From positions 453-32,452 of the forward strand of contig CAZPRK010000002.1 in assembly GCA_964589485.1 (NCBI GenBank): a DNA stretch of 32,000 bases, in the 5' to 3' direction. Position numbers and translations under genes: made by a program. This DNA is from an uncultured Methanosarcinales archaeon (GTDB lineage: Archaea > Nanobdellota > Nanobdellia > Woesearchaeales > CAYSVS01). How positions within the stretch are numbered: the first letter of the stretch is position 1; every line of letters starts with the position of its first letter. This document shows positions 3,665-29,945 of the stretch, in pieces. The notes under the pieces are model-generated. The model searched no databases. It was not told the DNA's origin and was given only the letters and a program-made list of their open reading frames with translations.

Positions 3665-3706
3665 AAATTTCTATTGTTGGTTTATTTGTTAAGGGATGAT
3701 ATTTCC

Positions 3707-3756: not shown

Positions 3757-3852
3757 GGTGCGCGTGAGCTATATAAATGATTCTTGGTTTATACATATTA
3801 CTCCCTAGAGAAATCTTGTGAAACAAAATGCGAAAGCAAGGAGGTGTTTGTA

Positions 3853-4113: not shown

Positions 4114-4124
4114 GGTGTAATAAA

Positions 4125-5183: not shown

Positions 5184-5255
5184 TTATTCATCCTAAAATA
5201 GTAATTTTGTTCTTAATAGAAATGTTTATAAATTATATAATATAAAATTAATACT

Positions 5256-6203: not shown

Positions 6204-6207
6204 AAAT

Positions 6208-8677: not shown

Positions 8678-8710
8678 AATTTTATAAACAACTTCACGAT
8701 TTTAGTAGTT

Positions 8711-9817: not shown

Positions 9818-10691
9818 TTTATTAAAAAGATATGTAAAGTTAGGTGAGACTTTTGACCCTGCTACTGTTAAGTTAGAGTCTAGCTTAAGAGTAAATACAT
9901 TAAGAATAAAGGAAGAAGATTTAGTTTTAAGGTTAGAAAAAAAAAGGATTAAGTTAGAAAAAATACCTTGGCTTACTCATGGATATCATTATAGAAGCTA
10001 TTTTTCACTTGGAGCTACTCAAGAATATTTACAAGGTTATTATTTTTTACAAGAATCAGCTTCTCAAGCTGCAGTTGAAGCATTAAACCCTCAACCAGGA
10101 GAAACAGTGTTAGATATGGCTGCTTCACCTGGAGGAAAAACAACTCAAATTGCACAATATATGGAAAATAAAGGAAAAATAGTTGCTCTGGAAAAAAATA
10201 AAAAAAGGTTAAATGCTTTAATTAATAATATTCAAAGAATGGGAGTTACTAATTGTTTAGTATATGGGATTGATGCATTAAATGTAGAAATTTTAAAATT
10301 AGAATTTGATAAAGTTTTATTGGATGCACCATGTTCAGGGAACTTTACATCTGAATCAAAATGGTTTGAGAAACGGGACATGGAAGGAATACATAAAAAT
10401 GCTAAATTACAAAGAGAAATGTTAATTAAAGCATTTTCTGTTTTAAAGAAAAATGGAGTTTTGGTTTATAGTACTTGCAGCATGGAACCTGAAGAAAATG
10501 AATTAAATATTGAATGGCTTATGGATAAATTTGATACTAAGGTTGAAAAAATTGAAATTAAAAATGGATCCAATGGATTAACTCAAGTTTTTAATAATTC
10601 TATACGGAAAGAAATATCTAAAACTAAACGGTTTTGGCCACATTTACACCATACTCAAGGTTTTTTTATTGCTAAAATTACAAAAAAATGA
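9777..10691 (+). CDS. NOL1/NOP2/Sun-family RNA cytosine-C5 methyltransferase
   Basis: It has a SAM motif (DMAASPGGKT) and catalytic Cys motifs (DAPCSG, YSTCS). The start is uncertain: TTG codons at 9798 and 9804 would reduce the overlap with the upstream gene. Confidence 0.85.
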   Translation: MILKKRRLKLSSNSLLKRYVKLGETFDPATVKLESSLRVNTLRIKEEDLVLRLEKKRIKLEKIPWLTHGYHYRSYFSLGATQEYLQGYYFLQESASQAAVEALNPQPGETVLDMAASPGGKTTQIAQYMENKGKIVALEKNKKRLNALINNIQRMGVTNCLVYGIDALNVEILKLEFDKVLLDAPCSGNFTSESKWFEKRDMEGIHKNAKLQREMLIKAFSVLKKNGVLVYSTCSMEPEENELNIEWLMDKFDTKVEKIEIKNGSNGLTQVFNNSIRKEISKTKRFWPHLHHTQGFFIAKITKK

Positions 10692-11950
10692 AATTATTTT
10701 CTAAATCTATTAAATTTAAAAACCCAATTAAAGTTTATGAAGAATATAGATCAAAAAATTCTATATTGTTAGAAAGTCAAAAGAATGGAAGATATAGTTA
10801 CATTGCTTTAAACCCAGATATGATTTTTAGAAGTAAAAATGGAAATATTACTATTTCTAAAGGAAACAAAGTAATTAAAAAAAAAGGAGATGTAGTTAAA
10901 GAGTTACGTAAAATATTTTATAAAAAAATTCTTAGAAAAAATTTACCTTTGTTTTATTCAGGAGGGATAGGATATTTTGCTTATGATTTTATAAAAAAAC
11001 ATAAAATAGATGATTTGAATTTATCTGATGTGTATTTAATTTTTCCTAGAACAATTATATTTTTTGATCATTTAAAGAAAAAATCTAAAATAATTTCTAA
11101 AGATATGGATTTTAGTTTTGATAAGATTAAAAGTTTTAATACAAAACATAATAAAGTTAATTTTGTTTCAAATTTTAAATATAAAGATTATATAAAAAAT
11201 GTTAATAAATGTATAGAGTATATTAAAGCAGGAGATTCATTTCAAATTAAAATAAGTCAAAGATTTGAATGTACAATTAATGAAGATACTTTTGAAATAT
11301 ATAAACGGTTACGTAAAATAAATCCTTCTCCTTATGCATCTTACATGGAATTAGATGGATTTAGTGTTATTTCATGTTCACCTGAACATTTGATTAAAGT
11401 AGAAAATAATGTATTAGAAACTAGACCAATAGGTGGAACGTATCCTGTAACTAAAAAAGTTTCTGATTTTTTAAAAGATAGTAAAGAAAATGCTGAACAT
11501 AACATGTTAATTGACCTTGAAAGAAATGACTTAGGAAGGGTTGCTTCTTTTGGTTCAGTTAAAGTAAATGAAAATAAAGTTATTGAAAAATATTCACATT
11601 TAATTCATTTAGTAACAAATATTAAAGCTAAATTAGGGAAAGGAGATGTTTTTGATGTATTTATGTCAATGTTTCCTGGAGGGACTGTCACAGGATGCCC
11701 AAAGAAACGAACAATGGAAATTATAAGTGAAATGGAACCTATTAGTAGAGGATTGTATACAGGAAGTATTGGTTTTATTAATTATTCAAATGAAATGGAT
11801 TTTAATATTATTATTCGAACTTTAGTTGTGAAAGGAAATAAAGGATATGTTCAGGTAGGCGGGGGTATTGTTGCAGATTCAAAACCTAAAAAAGAATATA
11901 ATGAAACTATAATTAAAGGAAAAGCTTTATTTGAGGCGATTAATTTATGA
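10688..11950 (+). CDS. pabB: Aminodeoxychorismate synthase component I (chorismate-binding enzyme)
   Basis: It has the motifs SPEHLIKV..ETRPIGGT, EHNMLIDLERNDLGRV and PGGTVTGCPKKRTMEII..E...RGLYTGSIGF. The PabB rather than TrpE call rests on its context with pabA, pabC, folP and folBK. Confidence 0.8.
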   Translation: MKLFSKSIKFKNPIKVYEEYRSKNSILLESQKNGRYSYIALNPDMIFRSKNGNITISKGNKVIKKKGDVVKELRKIFYKKILRKNLPLFYSGGIGYFAYDFIKKHKIDDLNLSDVYLIFPRTIIFFDHLKKKSKIISKDMDFSFDKIKSFNTKHNKVNFVSNFKYKDYIKNVNKCIEYIKAGDSFQIKISQRFECTINEDTFEIYKRLRKINPSPYASYMELDGFSVISCSPEHLIKVENNVLETRPIGGTYPVTKKVSDFLKDSKENAEHNMLIDLERNDLGRVASFGSVKVNENKVIEKYSHLIHLVTNIKAKLGKGDVFDVFMSMFPGGTVTGCPKKRTMEIISEMEPISRGLYTGSIGFINYSNEMDFNIIIRTLVVKGNKGYVQVGGGIVADSKPKKEYNETIIKGKALFEAINL

Positions 11951-12513
11951 TTTTAATAATAGATAATTATGATTCTTTTACTTATAATATATATCAAAGG
12001 TTAGGAGAAATGGGGTTTAAGTCATTAGTTGTTAAAAATGATGAAGTTTCAATTTCTAAAGTAAAAAAAATAAATCCAAGTCATATTATTATTTCTCCTG
12101 GACCGTGTACTCCAAATGAATCAGGAAAAAGTAATTTGATTATTAAACATTTTTATAAAAAAGTTCCAATATTGGGAATTTGTTTAGGTCATCAATGTAT
12201 AGCTCAAGTATTTGGATCAAAAATGATTAGAACTATTCCATTTCATGGGAAGCCTGACTTTTTTAGTCATAATAAAGATGAATTGTTTAAAGGGATAAAA
12301 CAAAAATTTATTGCTGCAAGATATCATTCTTTAATTGTTCAAAGTTTACCTAAAGATTTTGAATTAATATCTTGGAATAAAGAAAATTTAATCATGGGGA
12401 TTAAACATAAACAGTTTAATTTATATGGAATACAGTTTCATCCTGAGAGTATTTTGACAGATGTTGGATATAAATTGTTAAGGAATTTTGTAAATGTATG
12501 CCATAATAAATGA
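11947..12513 (+). CDS. pabA: Aminodeoxychorismate/anthranilate synthase glutamine amidotransferase component II
   Basis: It has triad motifs (GICLGHQ, QFHPES), typical for class-I GATase. It overlaps pabB by 4 nt. Confidence 0.85.
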   Translation: MILIIDNYDSFTYNIYQRLGEMGFKSLVVKNDEVSISKVKKINPSHIIISPGPCTPNESGKSNLIIKHFYKKVPILGICLGHQCIAQVFGSKMIRTIPFHGKPDFFSHNKDELFKGIKQKFIAARYHSLIVQSLPKDFELISWNKENLIMGIKHKQFNLYGIQFHPESILTDVGYKLLRNFVNVCHNK

Positions 12514-13282
12514 TAAATTGGAAAAAAGTGCTAAAATTAGCGTTTATGATAGAGGTTTTTTGTTAGGTGACGGTATATTTGAAACTTTAAGAGTATATAA
12601 TGGAAAAATTTTATTCTTTGATGAACATTATAAAAGGTTTTGTAATTCTGCAAAATTGATAAAATTAGATTATAAATTTAGTAAACTGAAGTTATTAGAT
12701 AATGTAAATAAATTGATTATTAAAAATAAATTAGTTAATGCTAAGATAAGAATAACTGTAACACGGGGAGAAAGTAAATTAGGGTTAGCTTTTGGTAAAG
12801 TTAAACCAAATATTATTATTTTATCTGAGGAAGTTAAATTACTTGATTCTTGTAATATTGTAACTTTTAATTCTTTTAGAGAATATCCTGAAATTAAATC
12901 TTTAAGTTACTTGAAAAATGTAATGGCAAAATTACATGCTCAAGAAAATAATGCATTTGAATCTATATTTGTTCATGAAGGATATATTGGAGAAGGAAGT
13001 TTTTCTAATATTTTTATTGTTAAAAATGGAGTTGTTATTACACCTGAAAAAAATATTTTACATGGAATAACTAGGGATATTGTGATTAAGTTATGTAATT
13101 CTATTAAATTAGTTCAAAGAAGAGTTAAATTGAAAGAATTATTAGATGCAGATGAAGTTTTTATTACATTTAGTTCATGTGGTGTAGTTCCAGTATATAA
13201 AGTAAACAATAAATTTAAAAGACAAAATACTCTTTCTCAAAAGATTAAGAGTTTATATGAGGATTATATTGATAATGTTTAA
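12494..13282 (+). CDS. pabC: Class IV aminotransferase-fold protein, likely aminodeoxychorismate lyase
   Basis: It has YDRGFLLGDGIFETLRVYNGKILFFDEHYKRF and the class IV fold pattern. Function is assigned from operon position. Confidence 0.7.
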   Translation: MYAIINDKLEKSAKISVYDRGFLLGDGIFETLRVYNGKILFFDEHYKRFCNSAKLIKLDYKFSKLKLLDNVNKLIIKNKLVNAKIRITVTRGESKLGLAFGKVKPNIIILSEEVKLLDSCNIVTFNSFREYPEIKSLSYLKNVMAKLHAQENNAFESIFVHEGYIGEGSFSNIFIVKNGVVITPEKNILHGITRDIVIKLCNSIKLVQRRVKLKELLDADEVFITFSSCGVVPVYKVNNKFKRQNTLSQKIKSLYEDYIDNV

Positions 13283-14060
13283 CGAAAATAGAACTTACAT
13301 AATGGGAGTATTGAATGTTACACCTGATAGTTTTCATGATGGTGGAAAGTTTATAGATTTTAATCTAGCAATTGAACATGCAAAACAAATGATTCAAGAT
13401 GGTGTAGATATTATAGATGTGGGAGGGGAAAGTACTAAGCCTGGGTCTGATCCTGTAAGTGAAGAAGAAGAAATAAATAGAGTTATTCCTATCATTAAAA
13501 AGTTATCTTCACTTGATGTTATAATTTCAATAGATACTTCTAAACCTAGAGTAGCAGAACTTGCATTAAATGCAGGGGCTCACATTATCAATGATGTAAC
13601 TGGGTTAGATTTTGAGATGAGGGCAGTTGCATCTAAATTTAAATGTCCAGTTATTATAATGCATATGAAAGGAAAACCAAAAACTATGCAGAAAGATGTT
13701 GAATATGGTGATGTTGTTCAAGAAATAAAAGAGTTTCTTTCAGAAAGAGTTAAGTTAGCAAAAGAATCTGGAATAAATGAAATTTTCATAGATCCTGGGA
13801 TTGGATTTGGAAAAGAATTAAAACATAATTTGGAATTAATTAGAAGATTAAATGAATTTAATGAAGTTGCTCCTATTTTATTAGGTGTTTCTAGAAAATC
13901 TTTTATAGGGAAATTAATTGGTGAAGAAAATACTAATGAAAGGTTAGAAGGAAGTTTATCGGCTGCCGTGATAGGGATAATGAACGGTGCTAAAATAATT
14001 CGTGTACATGACGTAAAAGAAAGTAAAAGAGCTGCTTTGATTGCAGATAGTATAAAATGA
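13257..14060 (+). CDS. folP: Dihydropteroate synthase
   Basis: It has the motifs IMGVLNVTPDSFHDGG, DVGGESTKPG, DPGIGFGK and RVHDV. An alternative start at ATG 13275 is possible. Confidence 0.92.
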   Translation: MRIILIMFNENRTYIMGVLNVTPDSFHDGGKFIDFNLAIEHAKQMIQDGVDIIDVGGESTKPGSDPVSEEEEINRVIPIIKKLSSLDVIISIDTSKPRVAELALNAGAHIINDVTGLDFEMRAVASKFKCPVIIMHMKGKPKTMQKDVEYGDVVQEIKEFLSERVKLAKESGINEIFIDPGIGFGKELKHNLELIRRLNEFNEVAPILLGVSRKSFIGKLIGEENTNERLEGSLSAAVIGIMNGAKIIRVHDVKESKRAALIADSIK

Positions 14061-14869
14061 CAAAAATAAAAATAAATAATGCGAAATATTCTTGTATTGT
14101 AGGAATAAATGAAGAAGAAAAATCTATTAAAAGAGATATTTTTATTGATTTAGAGTTAAAATATGATATTATTCAATCGGTTGTTACTGATAATTTAGAA
14201 TATACTATTGATTATAGAACTGTAAATGAAATTGTTAAAGACTTAATTGAAAATAAAAATTATTGTTTAATTGAAACAATGGCTGAAGATATAATACATA
14301 ATATTACTTCTAATTTCAGAGTAGATTATATTAAAATTAATTTAAGAAAACCAACTGGGATAGAAAATGCAGATTCTTCTGAAATTGAAATTACTAGAGA
14401 ATTAAATAAAGTGTTTATTGCTCTAGGATCTAATATGGGAGATAAAGAAAAAAATATAGATAAAGCGATTGAGTTAATTTTAAGGAAAAGTAAATTAATT
14501 TCAAAATCTTCTTTTTTACAAAATCCACCTGAATTTTATAAAGATCAAGATGATTTTGTTAATGCTGTAATTTGTGTTGAAACTTATCTTGAGTCACGAG
14601 AATTAATTAATTTTTTATTGTCAATTGAAACTGAAGTTTTTAAACGTGAAAGGTTAATTAAAAATGGACCTAGGCCTATAGATTTAGATATCATTTTCTT
14701 TGGAAATAAAATTATCAATGAAGAAGGATTAAGAATTCCGCATCCTCATATGCATGAAAGATTCTTTGTTTTAAAACCAATGAAAGAAATTGCTTCTGAA
14801 TTTGTTCATCCTACATTGAATAAGACAATAAGTGAATTATTTTTACTTGAATCTAATCCCAAGCAATAA
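14057..14869 (+). CDS. folBK: Fused dihydroneopterin aldolase / HPPK
   Basis: The N-terminal half is FolB-like (IVGINEEEK...DNLEYTIDYRTVNEIV...LIETMAEDI). The C-terminal half is FolK-like (IALGSNMGD, RPIDLDI, PHPHMHERFFVLKP). Confidence 0.88.
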   Translation: MTKIKINNAKYSCIVGINEEEKSIKRDIFIDLELKYDIIQSVVTDNLEYTIDYRTVNEIVKDLIENKNYCLIETMAEDIIHNITSNFRVDYIKINLRKPTGIENADSSEIEITRELNKVFIALGSNMGDKEKNIDKAIELILRKSKLISKSSFLQNPPEFYKDQDDFVNAVICVETYLESRELINFLLSIETEVFKRERLIKNGPRPIDLDIIFFGNKIINEEGLRIPHPHMHERFFVLKPMKEIASEFVHPTLNKTISELFLLESNPKQ

Positions 14870-17679: not shown

Positions 17680-18195
17680 ATGAGAAAATTAATATTATCT
17701 GTATTCTTTGTTTTAATTCTAGTTGTTTCTGTTTTCGGTTTTTTTTCTAATGTTCAAAAAGAGCAAGATTGTGTTGATATTGTACACGAAGAAGAAGTTA
17801 CTTCGGTATCAACATGTACTTCTGAACGAATAGTTAAAACTTGTGATGATACTAATACTACTTGTGATGAAATAACTGAATCTTTTCAACATAAATGTTT
17901 AAACACTTCAATAGTTAAAACAATAGAAAAAAAATGTGTAACTAAATCTTTAACTTTAGATAATCATAAAATTAATGTTGAAGGTTATGAATGTTCTGTT
18001 AATGATAATGTTGTAATTTGTGATTCTAAGTTTGATGGGAATGGAGACGGAATATGTACTTCTGGAGAAAGTTGTATGAAATTTGATTTTGATCAAGGAA
18101 GTTATACTCAGTATGAAAAGAATAGTAATTTGGATTTTGTTGAAAGTGATGAAAGTTTCTTTGTAGATAAAGCTTCAGTGGAGGTTTTAAAATGA
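17680..18195 (+). CDS. Small Cys-rich secreted or membrane-anchored protein, first gene of the toxin operon
   Basis: It has an N-terminal hydrophobic segment (LILSVFFVLILVVSVFGFF) and at least 14 Cys in 171 aa. GGGGTG lies before the ATG, and a TATA-like CTATTTATATC sits at about 17633-17643. I recognise no family. Confidence 0.65.
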   Translation: MRKLILSVFFVLILVVSVFGFFSNVQKEQDCVDIVHEEEVTSVSTCTSERIVKTCDDTNTTCDEITESFQHKCLNTSIVKTIEKKCVTKSLTLDNHKINVEGYECSVNDNVVICDSKFDGNGDGICTSGESCMKFDFDQGSYTQYEKNSNLDFVESDESFFVDKASVEVLK

Positions 18196-19910
18196 AAAGA
18201 TTAATTTTATTTTTATTATTACTTCCAATTGTAAGTGCATGGAACCTTCCAAGTGAAACTGATGGTTTTCATATGATTTTACCTTTAGATACTAATTTAT
18301 TAGATAGTGTTAGTAATAGTTCTACTGGTGGAAATTCTAATTGGAAACTTAATGCTGGAGCTACTAATTTTACTTCAATTTCTCGTGATGGGAACGGTGC
18401 TTACAGTATTCAAACTTCAAATGATAATACAATATATAATGATAGTAATTTTGATCAAGCATTTGCTAGTGGAGGAGCTATATGTTTTTCGGTTTATCCT
18501 CATGAGGATATTACTGTTGATGATACGATGATTTGGCAAAATCCAAATACTGGTGGTCAGTTTGATGGACATACTTCAATTGGATATAATGCAGTTTGGC
18601 CTTACAAATGGAGAAGGGAAGATAACCCTGGAGGATCCGGTGAAAAATCTATCACTATTCCATATAATGTAGAACTTGATGCTTGGAATTCTTTATGTTT
18701 AGTGTATAATAATAGTTACCATAAATTTTGGCTTAAGAATAATAATGGATCAGAATGGAGTGTTACGGATACAACTCAAAGTAGCGGTGCAGGGTTTGTT
18801 GGATCACATTCAGATTATTTAGGTAATACTTACCTTTATGGAAGTGCTGACGCCCCAGGAGATGTTGGAGTTAACGTTATCGTAGATGGTTTAGTTGGAT
18901 TTAAAATTTGGCCAGATGAACATTTATTAGAAAGTTATCATGCAGGAAATTGGACTATTGTTGATTCAAATGCTCCTGTGTTTTCATCAATAAATTGTAC
19001 ATCTTGTAATGATGCCGTTTCACCATACTCTAGTTCAAATTTATCTCCTTCATTTTATTTTGAAACAGATGTTAATGCAAATTGTAGAATTGCTAGTACA
19101 AATATAAATTATACTGCAATGGGAAGTTCAAAAAATTGTTATCAAGGTCAAGGTGAAAATACTCATACTTGTATTTTAACAGATGAATTAGATAGTGTTG
19201 TTGATTATGTGTATGCAGCATGTCAAAATAGTATTAGTTCTAATGAAAATTCAACAACTTTTTTGATGGACATAATTGCACCTCAAATTACAGCAATAAA
19301 TTGTACTTCATGTAACATTCCTAATGGTGATGTTGTTGCACCTTATACGACTTCAGATACAACTCCTACATTTACATTTAATACTGATGTTGGAAGTTAT
19401 TGTAGAGTTTCAGATTCAGCATTAAATTATTCAGTTTTAGGGGATTCTAGAAATTGTACAGGCGGACAAGGTGGAAGAAGTCATACTTGTAGTTTAACAG
19501 TTCAAGACGAATTAGTTTCTTCAACTGATAATATGTATGTGATTTGTGAAAATGGAGTAGTTGATAATGGGTATAGTACATTACAAATGGACATAACTAA
19601 CTTACAAGGTAATACTTCGAATGCAATTGAATGGGGAATTCAAAATAGTTCAATTTGGCCAAATGTTAAAATTTACACAAATCAACAAATTTATCTTCGT
19701 AATTTACAAAATCAACAAGTGTTGGCTACTGCCGATAAAGTTGCAGTTTATAAAAATCAAAGATGGATTTTAAATGTAGCTATTGATTCTGAAAGTAAAC
19801 TTGGATTGTTTAATTTAACGCCAGTTGTTTATGTTTTAGACATGGCTAACATTTCTATAACTGATATAAGGTCAAAAGTAAGTTCATTAATAACGGCTAC
19901 TGTAAAATGA
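18192..19910 (+). CDS. Secreted LamG/concanavalin-A-like lectin-fold protein with two Cys-containing repeat modules
   Basis: It has a signal peptide (MKRLILFLLLLPIVSA). The N-terminal 250 aa have a LamG_3-like pattern (LPLDTNLLDSVSN...GGAICFSVYP...WNSLCLVYNN). Two modules of about 102-107 aa start at INCTSCN. There are ATGA overlaps with both neighbouring genes. Confidence 0.6.
   Translation: MKRLILFLLLLPIVSAWNLPSETDGFHMILPLDTNLLDSVSNSSTGGNSNWKLNAGATNFTSISRDGNGAYSIQTSNDNTIYNDSNFDQAFASGGAICFSVYPHEDITVDDTMIWQNPNTGGQFDGHTSIGYNAVWPYKWRREDNPGGSGEKSITIPYNVELDAWNSLCLVYNNSYHKFWLKNNNGSEWSVTDTTQSSGAGFVGSHSDYLGNTYLYGSADAPGDVGVNVIVDGLVGFKIWPDEHLLESYHAGNWTIVDSNAPVFSSINCTSCNDAVSPYSSSNLSPSFYFETDVNANCRIASTNINYTAMGSSKNCYQGQGENTHTCILTDELDSVVDYVYAACQNSISSNENSTTFLMDIIAPQITAINCTSCNIPNGDVVAPYTTSDTTPTFTFNTDVGSYCRVSDSALNYSVLGDSRNCTGGQGGRSHTCSLTVQDELVSSTDNMYVICENGVVDNGYSTLQMDITNLQGNTSNAIEWGIQNSSIWPNVKIYTNQQIYLRNLQNQQVLATADKVAVYKNQRWILNVAIDSESKLGLFNLTPVVYVLDMANISITDIRSKVSSLITATVK
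18972..19598 (+). repeat. Tandem in-frame duplication (two units of about 306-320 nt) inside the LamG-like gene
   Basis: Unit 1 reads APVFSSINCTSCN..SPSFYFETDVNANCRIAS..NYTAMGSSKNCYQGQGENTHTCIL..FLMDII. Unit 2 reads APQITAINCTSCN..TPTFTFNTDVGSYCRVSD..NYSVLGDSRNCTGGQGGRSHTCSL..LQMDIT. Confidence 0.8.
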
Positions 19911-22900
19911 AATTAAAATTATTTTTTATGTTTTTGTTACTTGTTCAAGTTAGTTACGCGGCTAGTGAATATAGACCTTATTTACATGAAGCTGTAGTGC
20001 CAGAACATCCAGATGTAAAGTTATTTGGACAATATAGTACTAATTTATTTCCTGGAGCTGCAACTTATAGTTATGGTATAGAAGTTCCTAAAGGAGTAAA
20101 TGGTTTACAGCCTTTAATTTCTTTAAGTTATAATAGTCAATCAAATGATAAGTGGACTTTTACTTCAAGTTACATTTATAGAGATAGAAATAGTACTATT
20201 AGTGATGAAAGTGATGATGAGTTTATTTTAATTTTGGAAGGAGTTGCATATGAATTAAGGTATGATGGAAATTTTTGGCATACTGAAGTAGAATCTTATT
20301 TTAAAGTTGAAAATTATAGTAACCATTGGGTTTTGACTAAGAAAAATGGGAAAAAATATACGTTTGGAAATAATTCATTAATTTCTAATCATAGATGGTA
20401 TGTTGATCAAGTTACAGATTTACATGGAAATAATATTTATTATAATTATTTCTTAGATAATGGTACATTGAAAATATTAAACGTAAAATATAATAATGAT
20501 CAAACTAGAGAAATTAAATTTAATTATGAAGAAAAACCTAGACAAAGAGTTGTATATGATAATGGTTTAATAGTTCATGAAACAAAAAGAGTTAAAGATA
20601 TTTCTGTTTTTGCTCCTTCTTTAGTAAGAAGATATTCTTTTTCTTATACACAACTAAGTCCATTTATATCTTCACTTTCTTTAATTAAATATTTTGGAAG
20701 TGATAATAGTTCTATTTTACATAATATTAGTTTTGATTATTATATTTCTAATTTAGATATTGAAAATAGTACTGAAGATTGGGATGCACCTGAATCTTTT
20801 ACTAATGTGAATAATTATGATTTTGGGGTTAGGTTAGTTGATTTTAACCATGATGGATATGTTGATATGGTTCAAGGAAATCAAGATACTGAAACTAAAA
20901 ATGTTTGGATTAATAATAAAACAAAAGGATGGGTGAATTTAAGCACATGGAATGTTCCTGAATATTTTGTTCATACTGATAAAACAGATCAAGGAGTTAG
21001 ATTAATGGATATTAATAATGATGGATTTGTTGATACGATTAAAGCAAGAGATGGAGATAGAGTTGTTTATCTTAATAATAAAACTGGATGGAATTTGAGT
21101 AGTTGGGTAATGCCTTTAGATATTTTAAATTCTGTAGCAGAAGATATGGGTATTAGATTCGGAGATGTTAACGGAGATGGATTTATTGATTTTATTAGAG
21201 CAAAAGGTGGTAGTAGGAATGTTTATTTGAATAATAGAACTGGTTGGGTAGATTCATGGAATAATTTTCCTGCAGATTTTACAACTGCTGCTGGTAAGGA
21301 TAGTGGTTTAAGATTATTGGATGTAAATGGAGATGGATTGCCAGATCTTACTAAAAGTACTCCAACAAGTAGTAATACTTGGTTAAATAATGGATCAGGT
21401 TGGGAAAGTTATTCGAAATTTATATCTCCTGTTGCTTTTATAACTTCAGAAGATAAAGATAACGGAATAAGATTCTTAGATTTAAATAAAGATGGTTTAA
21501 TTGACTTTTGGGAGGGTCATGATACAACTTTGAAAGCTTATATAAATAACGGAACAGGTTGGATTGAAAATAATACTTGGGCTCCAAGAGAAGCTTTATT
21601 GTATAATAATGAGAATACAGGAAGAAGATTAGCCGATGTTAATGGAGATGGATTTGTTGATGTGATTATAAGTCATGATAATATTGGCAAGTATACTTAC
21701 TTGAGAAATTTTACACTTCCTTACTTATTAAAATCAATAACTAATGAATATGGAGGAAAGGTTGTAATAAATTATAGTACTTCTACTTCATTTAATAATT
21801 CTGAAAATGGATTTAGTGAACTTGGATTTAATTTATTTGTTGTAACTAATGTTACAATGAATGGGTCAGTTTCTTATAACTATTCTTTTGGAAAGTATAA
21901 TTATAATAAAAATGAATTTCGAGGTTTTGGGAAAAGTGTTGAAATAAAGCCTGGAAAAGTAATTAAACATTATTTTTATCAAGATGATCCTAGGAAAGGT
22001 AAAGAGTTTAAAACTGAAGTTTTTGGAAATAGTTTGTTATCAAAAAATGTTAAAGATTATAATTATACTTATAATGGAGTGTATAATGTAAGTTTAATTT
22101 TTTCTTCTGATTATATTTATGACGGTTTAGAAGTTCCTAAAGTTACAAATAAAACTTATGTTTATGATTCATTTCATAATTTAATTTCATTAAAAGATTT
22201 GGGAGATATTAATATAGAAGGAGATGAACATTATACTAATTATACTTATTCTACTAAAAATTGGATTTTAGATAGAATTGCCTCAGTTACTGAATTTGAT
22301 TCAGATAATAATAAAGTAAAACAAACTAAATATTTTTATGATAACTTAGGATTGAATGCATTAGGAAGTTTTGGAGATTTGACTAAAGTAGAAAAATGGT
22401 CTTCGAATAGTTCTTTTAATTATTTTGTATATGATAATTTTGGTAATTTGATTAGAGAAATTGATAGTCTCGGGGGAAGTACTAAATATGGTTATGGATT
22501 GTATAATACTTATTTAGCTTATTCAGTAAATCCTTTAGGACATATTACTTCTTTTGGATATGATTTGGGTACAGGTAACTTAATATTTCAAGAAAGTAAT
22601 GGAATTAATACTTCATTTGAATATGATGTTTTTGGTCGTATATTAAAAGAAATTAAACCTTATGATTCTTTACTTTTACCAACTAAGAACTATACTTATG
22701 TATTTGATGGGACTGTTCCTGAATTAGTTAAAGTTTCTTCAAGAACTACAAGTAATAAAAGTGATTCAATTTCTTATTATTATGACGGATATGGAAATTT
22801 AATTCAAATTAAAACAGATGTTGATTCAAGACAAATTGTAAAAAATATTTTTTATGATTCTGAATTTAGAGTTTTTTCAGAACAAAATCCTTATTTTTCT

Positions 22901-25240
22901 GCTAAAACTGAAAATTTATCTTCAATTTCAAATGATGCAAGAACATATTATACTTATGATGCTTTGGATAGAGTAATTGGTGTGTTGAATTCTGATTCTA
23001 CTTCTAAGAATGTTACTTTTTTACAATATAATATTACTGATTTTGATGAAAATAGTAATAAACATATTTATACATTAGATGGTCGTGGGAGAATTTCTAA
23101 AGTATATGAATTTAATTTGGGAGAAACTTATGTTACTTTTTATACGTATGATGGTAATGATAATTTAGTTTTAATTGTTGATAATGAAGGTAATGAATTC
23201 AGTTTTACTTATGATTCATTGAATCGTAAGGTTAGAATGAACGATCCAGATTTAGGAGAATGGAATTATTATTATGATGTTAATGGTAATTTGGTTAGGC
23301 AAGAAGATGCAAAAAATAATACTATTACTTTAAATTATGATTTATTGAATAGAATATTGCATAAAAATTCTTCTAATGTAAATATAACTTTCAATTACGA
23401 TAAAGATTATTTAGGAACTTTAAGTAATTTAACAATGGGAGACATTGTATTTAAGTATGAATATGATGATAGATTAAGGTTAGTAAAACAAATTCAAAAT
23501 TTGGAAGGAGTTGAAGTAACTAATGAATATCTTTATGATAGTCAAGATAGGTTAATTTCAGAAAATTCATTAGATTACATTTACAATTATCAAGGATTAG
23601 TTTCTTCAATTCCTGGGTATATTGATTCTTCTTTTTATAGTGCTTTCGGAACTATGCTTAATAGAAGTTATAATAATGGGTTATTACAAACTTTTAGTTA
23701 TATTGATGATAATAATAGATTAAAGTTAATTAATATTAACAATGTTCAAAATTTAAATTATACTTACGATAATGTTGGAAATATTTTGAAGATTGTAGAT
23801 TCAAATAAAAATCATATTTTAACTTATGATGGATTGGATAGATTAGTTACTGCAACAATTGGTTCTGATAATTACAGATATGCATATAATTCTATAGGAA
23901 ATATTATGAATCTAGTTAGTAATAATAATGCTAAGAAATTTATTTATTCATCAGGACATGCACCTGTTAAAATATTAGAAAATGTTTCCAGTGTTGATTT
24001 GTATAATCCAAAGGATACAAATTCAGGAAATAAAACCCGAACATTTAAGTTTAATTTAACTCAAGATACAAATATTAACAGTACAGCGAATTGGACAGTT
24101 TATTTTGGAGATGGTAGTAGTTCATCAGGTTCAACTACAGATTCTTTAGTAACTGTTCAGCATACTTATGCAAATGGGGGAACTTACGATGTTGGTTTTG
24201 TTACAGATTATGATGAACAAAATCTTTCTTTAACTTTTGGAGCAAGAGCTGAATCTTTAACTTTGGTTTCAAGTAATACTTCTACTAGATTATTTGAGTT
24301 AAAAATAACTAATGATATGTTAGAAAATGCATTAAATGTTGGTTGGAATTGCAGTTTGGGTTTAAGCTCTACTTCTTTGGTTAATTTATCTTCAGAGATG
24401 TATGTAAATATTACTGCAAACTTCACAACTCCTGGAAATAAATTGTTTAATTGTACAGTTACTTCAGATGATGGTAGTGAAAGTATTACTTTACCTTTAG
24501 AAGTTAAAGGATTAGAAGTTAAAGAGTATGATGTTTTATTAGAAAATAAATCTAAACGTATTGTGTCTTATAACTTAGTTAATCATTTTTCAACATTAAA
24601 TACTAACCTATCTCATAATATTGAAGGGTTTTCTACAACTGTAAATGTAAGTGATGATGTGATGGTGTTTGCAGAAGTAAATTATACTTCAGACGGACAT
24701 AATGAATTTATAATAACTTCAAATTATTCCACTGGATATGTGGATAGTTTTACTAAAGTTGGAGTTAGTATTGAGAATTTCTCAAGAGTAAATAATATAA
24801 TTAATATGATGTTATACAATTATTGGTATCCTGGAACTATTTATTTTAACATTAGCGAAGTAGATAACTCTACAACTGAAAATATACTTAAGTACAACAA
24901 AGAAGTTTCTAAAGATAGAGTTGAAGTTTCTGCATTTACTTCATCTTATGTTGATAAATTAATTAGTGTTTATTTAGGAAATCCTTTCCAAGTTTCATTA
25001 TTAACTTTACATGAAGGAGAAATAGTAGTAAATGAGTTAATTGTTGATAATGATCAAGGTCAGTTAATTGATTGGCAATTTAATACTGGAGTTGAAAATG
25101 TATTTTCTACAAATTCAGTAAATGATAGCGTAATGGTGTTTATAGAAAGTAATTATTCTATAGATGGAGTGTATAAAACTGTTGCAACTGTTAATAGTTC
25201 TTCTAATTCTAATAATGTTACTGGGGTGGTTGTTAAATGA
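19907..25240 (+). CDS. TcB/TcC-like RHS shell protein (SpvB N-domain, FG-GAP/VCBS propeller, YD repeats) with a C-terminal PKD/Ig-like region and no RHS core
   Basis: It has a signal peptide (MKLKLFFMFLLLVQVSYA) and an SpvB-type motif (GAATYSYGIEVPKGVNGLQPLISLSYNS). Six D.N.DG..D repeats span 20.83-21.67 kb (DFNHDGYVD, DINNDGFVD, DVNGDGFID, DVNGDGLPD, DLNKDGLID, DVNGDGFVD). It has a TcdB-mid-like ITNEYGG..NYS..FVVTNV and many YD repeats (YDNFGNLIREID, YDVFGRILKEI, YDGYGNLIQI, YDVNGNLVRQED, YDNVGNILKIVD, YDGLDRLV) up to about 23.92 kb. A PKD-like WTVYFGDGSSS...HTYANGGTYDV lies at about 24.09-24.21 kb, followed by repeated sequon-rich modules. Confidence 0.9.
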   Translation: MKLKLFFMFLLLVQVSYAASEYRPYLHEAVVPEHPDVKLFGQYSTNLFPGAATYSYGIEVPKGVNGLQPLISLSYNSQSNDKWTFTSSYIYRDRNSTISDESDDEFILILEGVAYELRYDGNFWHTEVESYFKVENYSNHWVLTKKNGKKYTFGNNSLISNHRWYVDQVTDLHGNNIYYNYFLDNGTLKILNVKYNNDQTREIKFNYEEKPRQRVVYDNGLIVHETKRVKDISVFAPSLVRRYSFSYTQLSPFISSLSLIKYFGSDNSSILHNISFDYYISNLDIENSTEDWDAPESFTNVNNYDFGVRLVDFNHDGYVDMVQGNQDTETKNVWINNKTKGWVNLSTWNVPEYFVHTDKTDQGVRLMDINNDGFVDTIKARDGDRVVYLNNKTGWNLSSWVMPLDILNSVAEDMGIRFGDVNGDGFIDFIRAKGGSRNVYLNNRTGWVDSWNNFPADFTTAAGKDSGLRLLDVNGDGLPDLTKSTPTSSNTWLNNGSGWESYSKFISPVAFITSEDKDNGIRFLDLNKDGLIDFWEGHDTTLKAYINNGTGWIENNTWAPREALLYNNENTGRRLADVNGDGFVDVIISHDNIGKYTYLRNFTLPYLLKSITNEYGGKVVINYSTSTSFNNSENGFSELGFNLFVVTNVTMNGSVSYNYSFGKYNYNKNEFRGFGKSVEIKPGKVIKHYFYQDDPRKGKEFKTEVFGNSLLSKNVKDYNYTYNGVYNVSLIFSSDYIYDGLEVPKVTNKTYVYDSFHNLISLKDLGDINIEGDEHYTNYTYSTKNWILDRIASVTEFDSDNNKVKQTKYFYDNLGLNALGSFGDLTKVEKWSSNSSFNYFVYDNFGNLIREIDSLGGSTKYGYGLYNTYLAYSVNPLGHITSFGYDLGTGNLIFQESNGINTSFEYDVFGRILKEIKPYDSLLLPTKNYTYVFDGTVPELVKVSSRTTSNKSDSISYYYDGYGNLIQIKTDVDSRQIVKNIFYDSEFRVFSEQNPYFSAKTENLSSISNDARTYYTYDALDRVIGVLNSDSTSKNVTFLQYNITDFDENSNKHIYTLDGRGRISKVYEFNLGETYVTFYTYDGNDNLVLIVDNEGNEFSFTYDSLNRKVRMNDPDLGEWNYYYDVNGNLVRQEDAKNNTITLNYDLLNRILHKNSSNVNITFNYDKDYLGTLSNLTMGDIVFKYEYDDRLRLVKQIQNLEGVEVTNEYLYDSQDRLISENSLDYIYNYQGLVSSIPGYIDSSFYSAFGTMLNRSYNNGLLQTFSYIDDNNRLKLININNVQNLNYTYDNVGNILKIVDSNKNHILTYDGLDRLVTATIGSDNYRYAYNSIGNIMNLVSNNNAKKFIYSSGHAPVKILENVSSVDLYNPKDTNSGNKTRTFKFNLTQDTNINSTANWTVYFGDGSSSSGSTTDSLVTVQHTYANGGTYDVGFVTDYDEQNLSLTFGARAESLTLVSSNTSTRLFELKITNDMLENALNVGWNCSLGLSSTSLVNLSSEMYVNITANFTTPGNKLFNCTVTSDDGSESITLPLEVKGLEVKEYDVLLENKSKRIVSYNLVNHFSTLNTNLSHNIEGFSTTVNVSDDVMVFAEVNYTSDGHNEFIITSNYSTGYVDSFTKVGVSIENFSRVNNIINMMLYNYWYPGTIYFNISEVDNSTTENILKYNKEVSKDRVEVSAFTSSYVDKLISVYLGNPFQVSLLTLHEGEIVVNELIVDNDQGQLIDWQFNTGVENVFSTNSVNDSVMVFIESNYSIDGVYKTVATVNSSSNSNNVTGVVVK

Positions 25241-26520
25241 AATCACTCCAAAGAATTGCTTTGCTTTTATCTATGCTTATGATATCTTTACCTATTGTAT
25301 TCTCATTAGAATTAACTTATGATGCGAATGGGAACTTAGTTACTGGTGATGGAAAATATAGAGAATATAATAGTTTGAATCAATTGTATAAAGTGTATAA
25401 TGGAAGTTCAGATGCAGGAACTTTATTACAGGAATATAAACATCATCCTACTGAGGAGAGAATTCTAGTTAAGAAAGAATATTTTGTTAACGGAAGTGTT
25501 AAGGAAAGAACTATTTATATTTCTAAAAGTTTAGTTAAGGTAATTAATAGTTCAGGTGAATTTGATTTTAATTATGTTTACCATAATGGTCAGTTGATAG
25601 CTCAAGAAATGAACGGAGATAAGAAGTTTATTCATGCAGATCATTTAGGAAGTAGTAGTGTTGTTACTGATAGTTCAGGCACAGTAATAGAGAATACTAC
25701 TTATTCTCCACATGGTGAAGTTGTATCGGGTGGAACTAAATCAAGATTCGGATACGAAGGCAAAGAGTTTGATTCTGTAGTAGGAGATACAGATTTCTAT
25801 TTTAGGAAATATAAACCTGAGTGGGGATTATTTACTCAACCTGATACTTTGATTCAGAACGTATACGACCCACAATCTCTAAACAGATACATGTTCGAGA
25901 GGGGTAACCCGTATAAGTATACTGATCCAAGCGGACATCAACCAGAATCTCCTGCGGGTGCAGTAGAAGAAGCAAATAAAGTAATAGCATCCTACCTTTA
26001 TGGTTTGGAAAGAAAAAGAATGGAGGAAGACAAACGTTATGAAAGATTATATGAGCTTTATCATGCTGAAAATCCAGAATTACCAAATAGTCCTTATGTT
26101 AATGTTTTAGTTTCAGCAGGGGGAAGCAGAACTATAGTTGAAAAACAAAGAAGAATAAGTTTAGGCATTCTTGAATCATGGAATTCTGTAAAATTAGATA
26201 AATTTGTTCAACAATCAAAAGTGATCCACATTGGCAATTCTTTAACTACTGCACAGCCTAAAATCTCTACTTCTTTAGATTCAGGAGGAAGTTCTTCAAG
26301 TGGATCATCTAGTGGAGGATTATTAAGTAAAATATGGAATTGGTTTACAGCAGGAGATGGAGATGATGGTTCTTCAAGTTCTTCTTCTTCATCAAGCAGT
26401 GGAAGTTCATCAAGTTCCTCTTCTAGTAGTAGTTCATCCAGCTCATCAGGAAGTTCATCCTCTTCAAGTGGAGGCGGATCCTCTGGAGATAGCAGTCCTT
26501 GGTGGTGTTTTTGGTGTTGA
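25237..26520 (+). CDS. RHS repeat-associated core protein with its own signal peptide, an unclassified C-terminal toxin region and a poly-Ser tail
   Basis: It has an N-terminal hydrophobic leader (IALLLSMLMISLPIVFS), a YD repeat (LTYDANGNLVTG) and core motifs (HADHLGSSSVVTDSSG..YSPHGE..FGYEGKEFDSVVGDTDFYFRKYKPEWGLFTQPDT..NRYMFERGNPYKYTDPSGH). The variable region after DPSGH starts at nt 25939. It has an ATGA overlap with the shell gene. Confidence 0.9.
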   Translation: MKSLQRIALLLSMLMISLPIVFSLELTYDANGNLVTGDGKYREYNSLNQLYKVYNGSSDAGTLLQEYKHHPTEERILVKKEYFVNGSVKERTIYISKSLVKVINSSGEFDFNYVYHNGQLIAQEMNGDKKFIHADHLGSSSVVTDSSGTVIENTTYSPHGEVVSGGTKSRFGYEGKEFDSVVGDTDFYFRKYKPEWGLFTQPDTLIQNVYDPQSLNRYMFERGNPYKYTDPSGHQPESPAGAVEEANKVIASYLYGLERKRMEEDKRYERLYELYHAENPELPNSPYVNVLVSAGGSRTIVEKQRRISLGILESWNSVKLDKFVQQSKVIHIGNSLTTAQPKISTSLDSGGSSSSGSSSGGLLSKIWNWFTAGDGDDGSSSSSSSSSSGSSSSSSSSSSSSSSSGSSSSSSGGGSSGDSSPWWCFWC

Positions 26521-26560: not shown

Positions 26561-27073
26561 ATGACTAATCAAATAAAAAAATTATTGATTCATCCTAAAA
26601 TGTTTTTTAGAGGTTTGAAAGAGGAAAAAAGCTATAAGAAAGCTTTAGTACCTTTCATCGTATTTTCTTTACTGATATATATATTTTGGTTTATTAAAAT
26701 TATATTACAAGTCAATAATACTCCTTTTTATTCAGGACCATCTTACTATGATTTTTTATTTGGAAACTTTGGTTTATTTTTTACCATCTATGCATTGGTC
26801 TTTTTGATTGCTGATATTATTATTTCACTTTTTTTCACGTTAGTAATAGTAGCTTTAGCTAAATTTATATGTTATTTAATAAAAGTAAAAATTTCTTTAA
26901 ATAAGATCTGGATTATATCAGTATATAGTTTAATTGCCTTTGTGTTGGCAAGTTTATTTCACTTTATAGCTTATTTTATCAACACTGCATTTTTAAAATA
27001 TGTTGGTTATGTATTCTACGCTTACTATCTCGTTCTTTTAATAATTGGAATTTTTGAGAATAGAGAAAAATAA
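26561..27073 (+). CDS. Multi-pass membrane protein, candidate immunity protein for toxin tip 1 (Yip1-like topology)
   Basis: It is 170 aa with 4-5 TM helices and starts 40 nt downstream of the toxin gene, the position expected for an RHS immunity gene. The family call is tentative. Confidence 0.55.
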   Translation: MTNQIKKLLIHPKMFFRGLKEEKSYKKALVPFIVFSLLIYIFWFIKIILQVNNTPFYSGPSYYDFLFGNFGLFFTIYALVFLIADIIISLFFTLVIVALAKFICYLIKVKISLNKIWIISVYSLIAFVLASLFHFIAYFINTAFLKYVGYVFYAYYLVLLIIGIFENREK

Positions 27074-27283: not shown

Positions 27284-28471
27284 ATGGAAGCTTTATATCC
27301 CGAATCAGTAAGACTTATCTCTAGTGATTTTTTTGGATTAAAGGAACTTAAAGGTATTAATGACGCAAATGGTAATTTATTACGAGATGGATCAGGCTTT
27401 CAAAGAGAGTACAATGGTTTAAATCAGTTGGTTAGAGTGCGTAATATTTCATCTAATATTGTTATACAAGAATATGTGCATGATCCATTTGAAGAAAGGA
27501 CTGTGATTAAGAAAATATATTTTAACAATGGAAGTCTGAAAGAGACTCACTTCTACTTTGATCGTGAATATGTAAGAATAACTAACAACACCGGAACATA
27601 CGATACAGAGTACGTCTTCATAGACAGTCAGCAAGTAGCAGAAGTTAAACATGATGGAGCTAAACAATATATACACACAGATCATTTAGGAAGTAGTAGT
27701 GTTGTTACTGATTCTAATGGAATAGTAATAGAGAATACTACTTATTCACCTCATGGAGAAGTATTAACAGGTGGAGAAGCAACTAGATTCGGATATGAAG
27801 GAAAAGAACATGATAGTGTAGTTGGAGATACTGATTTTCATTTCAGGAAGTACTGTTCAAGATTTGGTATATTCTGCCAACCAGATACAATAATACAAAA
27901 TGTATATGACCCACAATCTCTAAACAGATACATGTTTGAAAGAGGGAACCCGTACAATCAGATTGATCCTGATGGTCATTTACTGCCTTTATTATTCTGG
28001 GGTACATTTCTTATTGCTGCAGCGGTGGCAACAACAATTATTGCCATAGATAAATATCAAAAAGAGGACAATTCTGGTTTAGCAGAAACAGGTGTAACCC
28101 AAGCTGCTACAATAGTTTTTGAAAGTGTAGCACCTAAAGCAGCTGGCCCTGTTGGTGTAATATTAGGGAGTGCTTCAATAGCTGAGGGATTAGTTATTAC
28201 TTATGAAGATTTTACAAAAGATAAAGAAGGTGAAGAAAATACAGCTTCGCTTAAGATGAAAAAAATTACGTATATCGATGAAAATGGAAATCAAATACTT
28301 TTAACTGTGCCTGAAGAAACCAACAGATTATCAATCTCAACTGAGGGAGGTGGTATGACGAGGGCAGTTCCAGTTTATACAAGAAAAGATGGAAATGTTG
28401 TATGGGGTGACTCAAACAATGTTAATATTCCTGATGATGCTACTTCTATCGTAGATGATTTAGATAATTAA
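27284..28471 (+). CDS. Orphan RHS core protein with a second, different C-terminal toxin region (no signal peptide, no shell)
   Basis: It is homologous to 25237-26520 across the YD repeat and core (NDANGNLLRDG, HTDHLGSSSVVTDSNG..YSPHGE..FGYEGKEHDSVVGDTDFHFRKY..NRYMFERGNPYNQIDPDGH). The sequence after DPDGH (nt 27980 onward) is unrelated to tip 1 and begins with a TM helix (LLPLLFWGTFLIAAAVATTIIAI). Confidence 0.88.
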   Translation: MEALYPESVRLISSDFFGLKELKGINDANGNLLRDGSGFQREYNGLNQLVRVRNISSNIVIQEYVHDPFEERTVIKKIYFNNGSLKETHFYFDREYVRITNNTGTYDTEYVFIDSQQVAEVKHDGAKQYIHTDHLGSSSVVTDSNGIVIENTTYSPHGEVLTGGEATRFGYEGKEHDSVVGDTDFHFRKYCSRFGIFCQPDTIIQNVYDPQSLNRYMFERGNPYNQIDPDGHLLPLLFWGTFLIAAAVATTIIAIDKYQKEDNSGLAETGVTQAATIVFESVAPKAAGPVGVILGSASIAEGLVITYEDFTKDKEGEENTASLKMKKITYIDENGNQILLTVPEETNRLSISTEGGGMTRAVPVYTRKDGNVVWGDSNNVNIPDDATSIVDDLDN

Positions 28472-28512: not shown

Positions 28513-28761
28513 ATGACACTAAATAAAAATGTTCAATGGTTAATTATTGCATTTGCACCGATATCTATTATATTTGCAGTTATTTTTAGTTATCCAATTA
28601 TTCTTACGCTATATTCTATTCTTATTTTATATTTGATAGGTAAATATGAGAATGAGTTTGTGCTTTGCCCAAAAAAATCAAAAGAGAAGTTTATATCAAA
28701 AGTATTTCTATATATTATAATTATATTCACAATTGCTATTCAAATATATATGTTGAGCTAA
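28513..28761 (+). CDS. Small two-TM protein, candidate immunity protein for toxin tip 2
   Basis: It is 82 aa with two hydrophobic helices separated by KYENEFVLCPKKSKEK. It starts 41 nt downstream of the orphan toxin gene. Confidence 0.5.
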   Translation: MTLNKNVQWLIIAFAPISIIFAVIFSYPIILTLYSILILYLIGKYENEFVLCPKKSKEKFISKVFLYIIIIFTIAIQIYMLS

Positions 28762-29193: not shown

Positions 29194-29945
29194 ATGTTCT
29201 CTGTAAGGCAGATATTAAAGGACAACTGGGATAGGTATGTCCAAAGACACAATCCTAACAAATATCAGCGCCAAGTAGTGCGAGCTATGTTAAAATGTTC
29301 TAAATCAAGCTGCAACTCTAGGTTGTGCTCTTCTTGTGGAAAAAGATTCACCGATAGTTGGGCGAATTGGATTAAGGACTACTTATATGACATTAACCAT
29401 TTTCATGTACTTCTTACTATTCCAGCAATTTTAAGACCTAAGTTAAGAAAATGGAAAAATCTTAAAATCCTCATGGATTCGTCACGGGATTTTTTAGATC
29501 AATTTCTAGTGATAACTTTGGAATTATAGTAGTACTTCACACTTTTGGAAAAGACTTAAAGTTTAATCCACATCTTCATATTATATCAACAACCAGACTA
29601 AATGAAAGATTTAGCAGGATATGGAGAAAAATTGTTTTAGAAAACCTCCAAGCACCATCAAACAAATATTACTATGGATATTTTGTCTGGTCTGACAAAA
29701 GAAAATTAAATATCAGAAAGATATCTAAATATCTTGCTAGATATATAAGGCATCCTGTCATGGCTGATAAGAGAATTATTTTTTATAGGGGTGAAACCAT
29801 TCAATTCAAAGCAGGTCAGAATATTAAGAAAATGAAAACTGATGATTTCATAACAAGCTTAATTCAACATGTGCCGCCTAAACATTTTAGGCTGATAAGA
29901 CACTATGGAAGGTATAGAAGAAATTTTACGGATTACAATCCGTGA
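29194..29945 (+). pseudogene. IS91-family (Y2 HUH rolling-circle) transposase, frameshifted and shortened
   Basis: It has a zinc-binding N-domain (CSKSSCNSRLCSSCGKRFTDSW...HFHVLLTIP). After a stop at 29527-29529 the family motifs continue in another frame from about 29505 (GIIVVLHTFGKDLKFNPHLHIIST, YLARYIRHPVMADKRI, PPKHFRLIRHYGRY). The total of about 250 aa is shorter than I expect for an intact IS91-family transposase. Confidence 0.75.

Follow-up and report, generated by a model that had tools for sequence, protein, structure and literature searches.

Can the capsule of an Rhs toxin be closed when its shell and its plug are encoded by different genes? The question is raised by a 32-kb stretch of contig CAZPRK010000002.1 (hereafter the window; all coordinates are positions in it). 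An original prediction made from the DNA letters had pointed to a gene for a 1777-aa YD-repeat protein without the Rhs core, followed in an overlapping frame by a gene for a 427-aa protein that bears the core and a toxin. It proposed that the two assemble in trans or that the smaller one is an independent mini-Rhs toxin. We find that the locus is a polymorphic-toxin operon of a Woesearchaeota-like DPANN archaeon, of the Rhs/Tc "cocoon" kind, encoding two translationally coupled, Sec-exported proteins, which we call the large protein and the cartridge (Table 1). The real, conserved two-gene architecture is, in our judgement, close to certain. Our preferred reading, with a probability of about 0.5, is that the cartridge completes the capsule by docking extracellularly on the large protein, a contact that we infer; it is the trans-assembly step that keeps the overall figure this low.

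The large protein resembles TcB and ends in a beta-sandwich tail

The large protein matches the Pfam families RHS_repeat (PF05593; E 2e-26), FG-GAP_3 (PF13517, in five stretches) and TcdB_toxin_midN (PF12256, at aa 561–693), as well as the NCBIfam model TIGR01643. SpvB is not detected in it at E ≤ 0.01 and scores above the cutoff in five homologues (L068, L067, L031, L042 and L080; loci and proteins of our survey are referred to by such handles). In a sequence search against PDB chains, aa 226–638 align to residues ~325–740 of TcdB1/YenB and the YD part aligns to Rhs proteins of type VI secretion systems (T6SS). Rhs structures are the best matches in the PDB by both sequence and fold.

The C-terminal part of the protein consists of a segment of about ten extra YD repeats, which we call YD10, and a tail. 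An AlphaFold2 (AF2) model of aa 1101–1777, based on a 22-sequence alignment and with a mean predicted local distance difference test (pLDDT) score of 80.6, is all-beta throughout. YD10 forms beta-hairpins (pLDDT ~85) that run to about aa 1346, and ~4–5 beta-sandwich domains follow. The YD strands stop near aa 1340–1346, or ~nt 23926–23944, close to nt ~23920, where the original prediction had seen them end. H1351 and P1353 are invariant in the motif that closes YD10. The PKD-like, sequon-rich end of ~440 aa that had also been predicted corresponds to a tail of 437 aa with a borderline PKD_4 match at aa 1372–1434 (27.5 bits against a Pfam cutoff of 27) and 24 NxS/T sequons (5.5 per 100 aa). Foldseek searches with the YD part retrieved Rhs and TcC shells; those with the tail retrieved generic immunoglobulin (Ig)/MG-like domain chains, such as alpha-2-macroglobulin and complement C3, and no match pointing to a specific function.

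Neither Pfam nor NCBIfam detected an Rhs-associated core in the large protein. When a cartridge-family profile was run against it, the score was E = 3, compared with 3.4e-70 for a fused relative that served as positive control, and a motif search of the 1777 residues found neither DPxG[LH] nor HxDHxGS. The profile search with its control and the motif search rule out a hidden core, in agreement with the prediction that this protein has none.

The cartridge combines an Rhs core with a variable toxin

The cartridge opens with a signal-peptide-like segment, modelled by AF2 as a helix at aa 2–22, whose pattern is kept in the full-length members of the family according to sequence comparison. Behind it lie about six YD hairpins (12 strands at aa 26–164, pLDDT >90), where the prediction had counted one or two YD repeats; it was right about the signal-peptide-like start and the intact core. 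The core is recognized by the NCBIfam model TIGR03696 (Rhs_assc_core) at aa 156–234 (52 bits; cutoff 32.5), and aa 40–226 match the teneurin YD-shell profile over its last 200 positions. R190, D203, D230 and G233 are invariant in a 73-sequence alignment, and H234 is at least 90% conserved. From their positions, we take R190, D203 and D230 together with DPxGH to be the Arg/Asp/Asp protease and the DPxG[LH] cleavage motif of YenC2 and TccC3. The title of PDB entry 8uxt names a cleavage mutant of the equivalent residues, D1369N/D1391N. In Foldseek comparisons the AF2 model of the cartridge superposes on the C-terminal ~190–210 residues of Rhs, teneurin and TcC cocoons at ~3.4 Å.

Cartridges are 50–70% identical to one another within the family, and this similarity ends at DPxGH. 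The toxin that follows is confidently modelled at aa 242–330 (pLDDT ~90). Its C-terminal domain recurs in L011, L014, P0001, P0002 and P0047. The toxin C-termini have no Pfam or NCBIfam match, and Foldseek with the cartridge returned none for the toxin domain. Distant homologues of the toxin (e.g., P0001, P0002 and P0047) share a long poly-Ser/Gly tract and a terminal WWC(F/I/L)WC(K/R) motif, and a Yip1-like membrane protein is always encoded 3' of this toxin type. Our guess is that toxins with the WWC motif act on a membrane target.

The junction between the two genes is conserved

The large gene ends in the sequence gtt gtt aaA TGA, in which the ATG of the cartridge gene (25237) overlaps the TGA of the large gene (25238–25240) and is directly preceded, in its own frame, by a TAA (25234–25236). 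The ATGA overlap in the −1 frame and the TAA upstream are thus as originally described. The same relation is what an assembly indel, a recent pseudogenizing frameshift or a programmed frameshift that yields one fused protein would have in its favour; it has just the −1 frame relation and the overlap at 25237–25240.

Homologous loci speak otherwise. The same junction occurs in ~30 independent places and many assemblies, and the 4-bp overlap, of the form [A/G/T]TGA, is found in all 30 of the tail-to-cartridge junctions listed. In the open reading frame (ORF) of the cartridge, a TAA stands right before the ATG, the conserved signal peptide that opens the second protein would be senseless in mid-chain, and the fused relatives described below have no tail at all. 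A Shine-Dalgarno (SD)-like hexamer matching GGAGGTGATC lies at most 20 nt away in 26 of the 30 junctions, compared with 20% of control windows of upstream genes; this element may be the reason why tails end in a conserved ..TGVV(V/I).. sequence. Given the recurrence of the junction and the conservation of the second signal peptide, we reject the indel, the pseudogene and the frameshift fusion, whose combined chance we regard as negligible. Judged by these comparisons of homologous sequences, the split is genuine and under selection.

The original prediction had recommended a comparison with homologous loci and named a single ORF in homologues as a result that would speak against it. Most homologues turn out to be split likewise, and homologous tails, at 27–38% identity, are present in more than 20 loci.

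Relatives encode the same parts in other combinations

More than 160 close homologues of the cartridge were found; almost all have 380–470 aa and, where named, they come from Woesearchaeota or Nanoarchaeota. At E ≤ 1e-30, an exhaustive profile search returned 1297 cluster representatives (50% identity); of the 150 best, about 136 are 250–490 aa long, with the match beginning near residue 1. A scan of one genome per species yielded 75 loci, mostly from DPANN archaea and including the complete genome CP010425. In our ORF and BLAST survey, a homologue of the 572-aa protein that precedes the large protein in the window, a shell protein with YD10 and a homologous tail, and a cartridge follow one another in this order in at least 16 complete and about five contig-truncated loci. 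Many loci with the title "uncultured Methanosarcinales archaeon" (L006, L011–L014 and others) hold the same DPANN-type operon at 32–40% GC; the taxonomic labels of these loci look unreliable.

A second architecture, which we call A-type, is a fused single chain without YD10 and without the tail (L003 at 2797–7500, L023, L080, L082 and P0238). Their identity to the large protein is 50–60% as far as about aa 1112–1141, after which they run straight on as cartridge aa 19/32–234 and a toxin. The alignment shows that the form in the window (C-type) equals an A-type chain into which YD10, tail, stop codon and signal peptide have been placed, in phase, between two YD repeats. The cartridge thus supplies exactly the part of the cocoon that the large protein lacks.

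A third architecture, B-type, is a stand-alone secreted protein of ~700–735 aa that begins precisely at YD10, behind a signal peptide of its own, and ends with the tail (L003 at 7896–10004, L023, L029, L080, L081, L082 and about 12 further clusters). It usually closes an A-type array. Where the main gene is fused, the locus carries YD10 and tail, in places with a cartridge, further downstream in the manner of displaced cassettes (L003, L023, L080 and L082), and the arrays contain many 5'-truncated fragments of both genes. One could read from this that the fused chain is the functional one and that the split is an "off" or reserve state, left when YD10, tail and cartridge module recombine into the main gene. 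Yet the split form is the majority, with its at least 16 complete and about five partial loci against five fused ones, and its ORFs are intact at 27–50% identity. Both products keep their signal peptides, the SD-like motif and the overlap, and B-type proteins have a signal peptide of their own at a fixed start. We regard a recombination intermediate or silent store as very improbable.

Two records carry bacterial labels. L068 (1386–8219), from a metagenome-assembled genome labelled gammaproteobacterial, encodes a single chain of 2277 aa, in which the shell and YD10 (..GPHALTS) are followed by a ~190-aa non-YD domain, a cartridge start, a second inserted domain, the core and a toxin. The cartridge start (YTYDANGNM..) is 35% identical to cartridge aa 27–107 (E 4e-7). 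It follows from this layout that the order of the split form occurs in cis as well, a foreign domain then taking the place of the tail. L067 (OY762069, a Desulfobacter chromosome, 3720–11173) is split in the same manner, with the 4-bp overlap, and has a gene for a 572-like protein upstream. These two records point to transfer between DPANN archaea and bacteria or to binning errors.

In a second, Pacearchaeota-like lineage the cartridge gene lies upstream of the large gene, and the large protein keeps YD10 and has an unrelated tail of 450–800 aa (L036, L041, L042, L052, L054, L060, L066, L069 and L075; record titles Pacearchaeota, Nanoarchaeia, Nanoarchaeota, Woesearchaeota or "Methanosarcinales"). 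Proteins of 729–745 aa without detectable similarity precede the cartridge in L041 and L042.

A ~200-aa LamG domain (Laminin_G_3) is inserted inside the Rhs core of P0098, P0104, P0117 and P0033. The insertion point lies between ..GYEGKEH.. and ..DFxFRKY.., that is, between the last YD strands and the catalytic Arg, an unusual place in a protease/plug domain.

Assembly in trans or independent action

If the two chains assemble, the free N-terminal beta-edge of the exported cartridge would pair with the last YD strand of the large protein, the core would plug the shell and cut the toxin free inside it, and the Ig tail would loop out at the seam and serve attachment. Cartridges could be swapped by recombination, possibly also by the binding of cartridges encoded elsewhere in the genome. 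The arrangement would be like that of TcB/TcC, with the cut much nearer the plug.

Several findings favour such docking. Among them are the exact match between the cartridge and the part of the A-type chain that the large protein lacks, and the order of parts in L068. The AF2 model of the cartridge has the curvature of a shell segment, and its core end (aa 206–239) is of low confidence when modelled alone, as would be the case if a plug depended on its shell. The cartridge gene is strictly coupled to the tail gene, by both the 4-bp overlap and the SD-like motif. One toxin motif is common to a fused protein and a cartridge. Solo signal-peptide cartridges occur in L038 and L040, and the same genomes also hold tail-plus-cartridge loci (L025 and L021). 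In a rough neighbour-joining tree of the cores, drawn without support values, P0238 and the shell-less fusions described below nest among the cartridges; the placement of P0238 suggests that cis and trans forms at least occasionally interconvert.

Other observations count against docking. Most A-type cores form, with bacterial cores, a clade apart from the cartridges in the same tree. B-type proteins, which lack a full shell, are paired with a cartridge through the 4-bp overlap in three of the five readable loci (L003, L023 and L029); the cartridge is truncated in L081, and there is none in L082. YD10 (~200–228 aa) is about as long as the YD and core module of the cartridge, and hhalign matches the two with 82% probability, a value that YD periodicity could produce by itself. 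YD10 may be a diverged copy of the cartridge module, and for this reason the large protein might close on its own. A chimeric query of tail end and cartridge start found no natural tail–cartridge fusion among the 120 hits listed of 281 matched. Cartridge modules without a shell stand behind unrelated LamG/lectin or Ig-like domains in P0184, P0216, P0204, P0063 and P0100; no homology to the tail was found in the N-terminal domains of such fusions (P0184 and others). For three further solo signal-peptide cartridges (L010, L017 and L059), no large gene lies within 10 kb.

Distant solo cartridges and shell-less fusions are what an autonomous toxin would leave. The 427-aa protein would then act by itself, with YD hairpins and core as a self-cleaving module for release and stabilization of a Sec-exported toxin. 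The large protein would be an independent surface protein, or an empty capsule closed by its own YD10 and equipped with an adhesin tail, and would be co-expressed or loosely associated. The LamG domain inside the core of P0098, P0104 and P0117 also fits such a toxin, as does the correspondence of YD10 to the cartridge module in length, with weak similarity. By arithmetic, the large protein without propeller and tail retains ~985 shell residues, a near complete single-chain cocoon. Single-layer beta-sheets can moreover be stable alone, and OspA mutants are among the weak Foldseek matches.

On the other hand, the same module is integral to the cocoon in the fused relatives, and a toxin of ~190 aa is too large to be enclosed by six hairpins, even though its types are also found in fused cocoon proteins. 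The C-terminal part of the core is poorly modelled alone. The overlap coupling is near-universal where the tail gene is present, and L068 holds YD10 and the cartridge module in one chain. We consider independent action a credible, if tentative, alternative to docking of the cartridge on the large protein. An extension of docking, in which a capsule built extracellularly from two Sec-exported chains, with a propeller-gated body and an adhesin tail, can be loaded with several 400-aa cartridges, encoded locally or elsewhere and without a TcA or T6SS carrier, strikes us as rather unlikely.

Organization of the operon and its surroundings

Four plus-strand ORFs, for proteins of 171, 572, 1777 and 427 aa, are chained by 4-bp overlaps, and three more, for proteins of 170, 395 and 82 aa, lie downstream (Table 1). 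The 171-aa protein, probably secreted like the 572-aa one, has no Pfam match, and from the overlap we infer that it is part of the toxin system. In at least 14 loci the C-terminal 200–300 aa of the 572-aa protein are kept in the gene that immediately precedes the large one, and the homologue in L082 bears Laminin_G_3 (LamG); a role of the 572-aa protein as an adhesin or as an "A-like" capsule partner is conceivable.

Table 1. Features of the toxin operon, with positions in the 32-kb window
Feature	Position	Strand	Remarks
171-aa protein, hydrophobic N-terminus	17680..18195	+	First of the overlap chain; next ORF starts at 18192
572-aa secreted protein, upstream partner of the large shell gene	18192..19910	+	4-bp overlap with the large gene
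Large protein ORF, 1777 aa	19907..25240	+	TcB-like; signal peptide, FG-GAP propeller, TcdB_midN, YD repeats, Ig/PKD tail
Large protein aa 1–1112: signal peptide, putative SpvB-like N-terminus, FG-GAP beta-propeller, TcdB_midN, YD shell	19907..23242	+	Common to fused relatives
YD10, ~ten extra YD repeats, aa 1113–1340	23243..23926	+	Ends in invariant ..KxFxY....(A/G)HAP..
Tail, aa 1341–1777 and stop codon, ~4–5 beta-sandwich domains, sequon-rich	23927..25240	+	PKD at nt 24020–24208
Translational-coupling junction	25217..25240	+	SD-like GGGGTGGT, then ATGA stop/start overlap
Cartridge ORF, 427 aa	25237..26520	+	Signal peptide, YD hairpins, Rhs core, variable toxin
Cartridge signal peptide, aa 1–23, ..LPIVFS/LEL	25237..25305	+	Family pattern: hydrophobic stretch-LPxxFA/xEL
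Conserved module, aa 24–234: ~six YD hairpins and Rhs-associated core	25306..25938	+	R190, D203, D230, P225xxxxDPSGH234
Variable C-terminal toxin, aa 235–427	25939..26520	+	Helix-hairpin-helix, poly-Ser stretch, terminal WWCFWC
Candidate immunity protein, 170-aa Yip1-like membrane protein	26561..27073	+	Pfam Yip1
Orphan cartridge, 395 aa, 5'-truncated, core intact	27284..28471	+	62.5% identity to cartridge 1, aa 29–234
82-aa hydrophobic protein, candidate immunity protein for the orphan toxin	28513..28761	+	Assigned by position and hydrophobicity only

Homologues of the 170-aa Yip1-like protein lie immediately 3' of the same toxin type in L011 and L014, which is the pattern of a toxin/immunity pair. 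The orphan cartridge has no signal peptide, and its alignment begins at aa 27; it contains the TIGR03696 core and a different toxin that opens with a transmembrane helix. Comparable truncated orphans are present in many loci.

The window as a whole is AT-rich (~28% GC) and archaeal, with housekeeping neighbours that Pfam scans identify as including RadA/Rad51 and NFACT. Transposase fragments are found near its start (32–919) and just 3' of the toxin array (29194–29945), from the families DUF772/DDE_Tnp_4 and with an IS91 zinc-binding domain. A compact folate/para-aminobenzoate (pABA) gene cluster occupies 10688–14869 and comprises anthranilate/PABA synthase components I and II, a class IV aminotransferase, a FolP-like pterin-binding enzyme and FolB-HPPK. 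DPANN-type genomes are usually poor in biosynthesis, which makes such a cluster notable there.

Implications for DPANN toxins and cocoon engineering

DPANN archaea live attached to other cells, and the means by which they interact with hosts and competitors are poorly known. The family described here points to a large and apparently unstudied DPANN toxin/immunity arsenal, with hundreds of 50%-identity clusters. Should the two chains assemble, the cartridge, with ~210 conserved residues, would be smaller than any "C" component known from cocoon toxins and would reveal where an Rhs shell can be cut and re-completed. It would then be useful for the engineering of capsules that can be loaded with cargo and for the study of YD-shell folding after Sec export. 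If instead the cartridge acts alone, it would represent a self-cleaving Rhs toxin module of minimal size that works without a cocoon, and the view of the core as a plug that works only inside a shell would have to be revised. A capsule that accepts many cartridges would, if real, be a modular weapon or host-interaction device of episymbiotic archaea.

Comparison with known systems

The premise of the original prediction, that shell, core and toxin are normally one polypeptide, holds in so far as the capsule is usually one protein; it leaves out the two-chain cocoon of TcB and TcC. A two-chain cocoon was thus already known, and the large protein bears the hallmarks of TcB. Searches of the literature on DPANN archaea or Woesearchaeota with Rhs or YD proteins, and on Tc toxins with archaea, returned no published description of a DPANN Rhs family; an earlier listing in a survey of archaeal polymorphic toxins is possible.

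Among bacterial Rhs systems, we compared T6SS RhsA, Rhs1/Tre23, RhsP, Tse15 and the E. coli rhs loci with orphan rhs-CT cassettes. They share with the DPANN system a YD shell, a TIGR03696 core with PxxxxDPxG[LH] and the Arg/Asp/Asp residues of autoproteolysis, a variable C-terminal toxin with an immunity gene directly downstream, and 5'-truncated orphan cassettes that keep the core. Unlike in these systems, shell and core lie on separate genes in the DPANN system and form one polypeptide only in the A-type relatives. A propeller and midN, a TcB feature, replace the PAAR- or VgrG-binding N-termini, and export is by Sec without a T6SS. DPANN orphan units can also join the tail end of the upstream gene with a cartridge.

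WapA of B. subtilis is a Sec-exported YD-shell toxin made as a single chain. Bacterial teneurin-like proteins (TLPs) are likewise single chains, with a surface-exposed, Sec-exported YD shell, polymorphic C-terminal toxins and downstream immunity genes (PMC13018210). At the end of their YD shell, teneurins and TLPs are matched by the cartridge profile, the resemblance to teneurins being limited to the shell end and the core. These proteins also carry non-shell domains outside the shell after the last repeats. Unlike the DPANN system, however, teneurins, TLPs and WapA have no separate gene for plug and toxin, and teneurins and TLPs use an FN-plug and an NHL propeller gate where the DPANN system has SpvB, FG-GAP and midN.

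The closest parallel is offered by TcB/TcC pairs such as TcdB2–TccC3 and YenB/YenC2, in which the cocoon is made from two polypeptides, as it would be in the DPANN case. Like the large protein, TcB has an FG-GAP propeller gate, TcdB_midN and RHS repeats, to which it adds an SpvB-like N-terminus that is detected in homologues of the large protein, and TcC, like the cartridge, comprises the last repeats, an aspartyl-protease core and a hypervariable toxin. Several C genes of one genome can serve a single B, and 97% of TcC proteins are 851–1050 aa long (PMC7861908). The cartridge, by contrast, has 427 aa, with ~135 aa of repeats before the core, and the large protein exceeds TcB by ten YD repeats and the Ig/PKD tail. 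No TcA gene was found in the window, where no ORF besides that of the large protein exceeds 600 aa. Tc toxins further differ in that both archaeal chains have Sec signal peptides and in that the DPANN system has immunity genes, Rhs-type orphan cassettes and an archaeal host. What is new in the DPANN system is thus the site of the cut, a "C" part of 427 aa, the Ig tail, the Sec export of both chains and the archaeal host.

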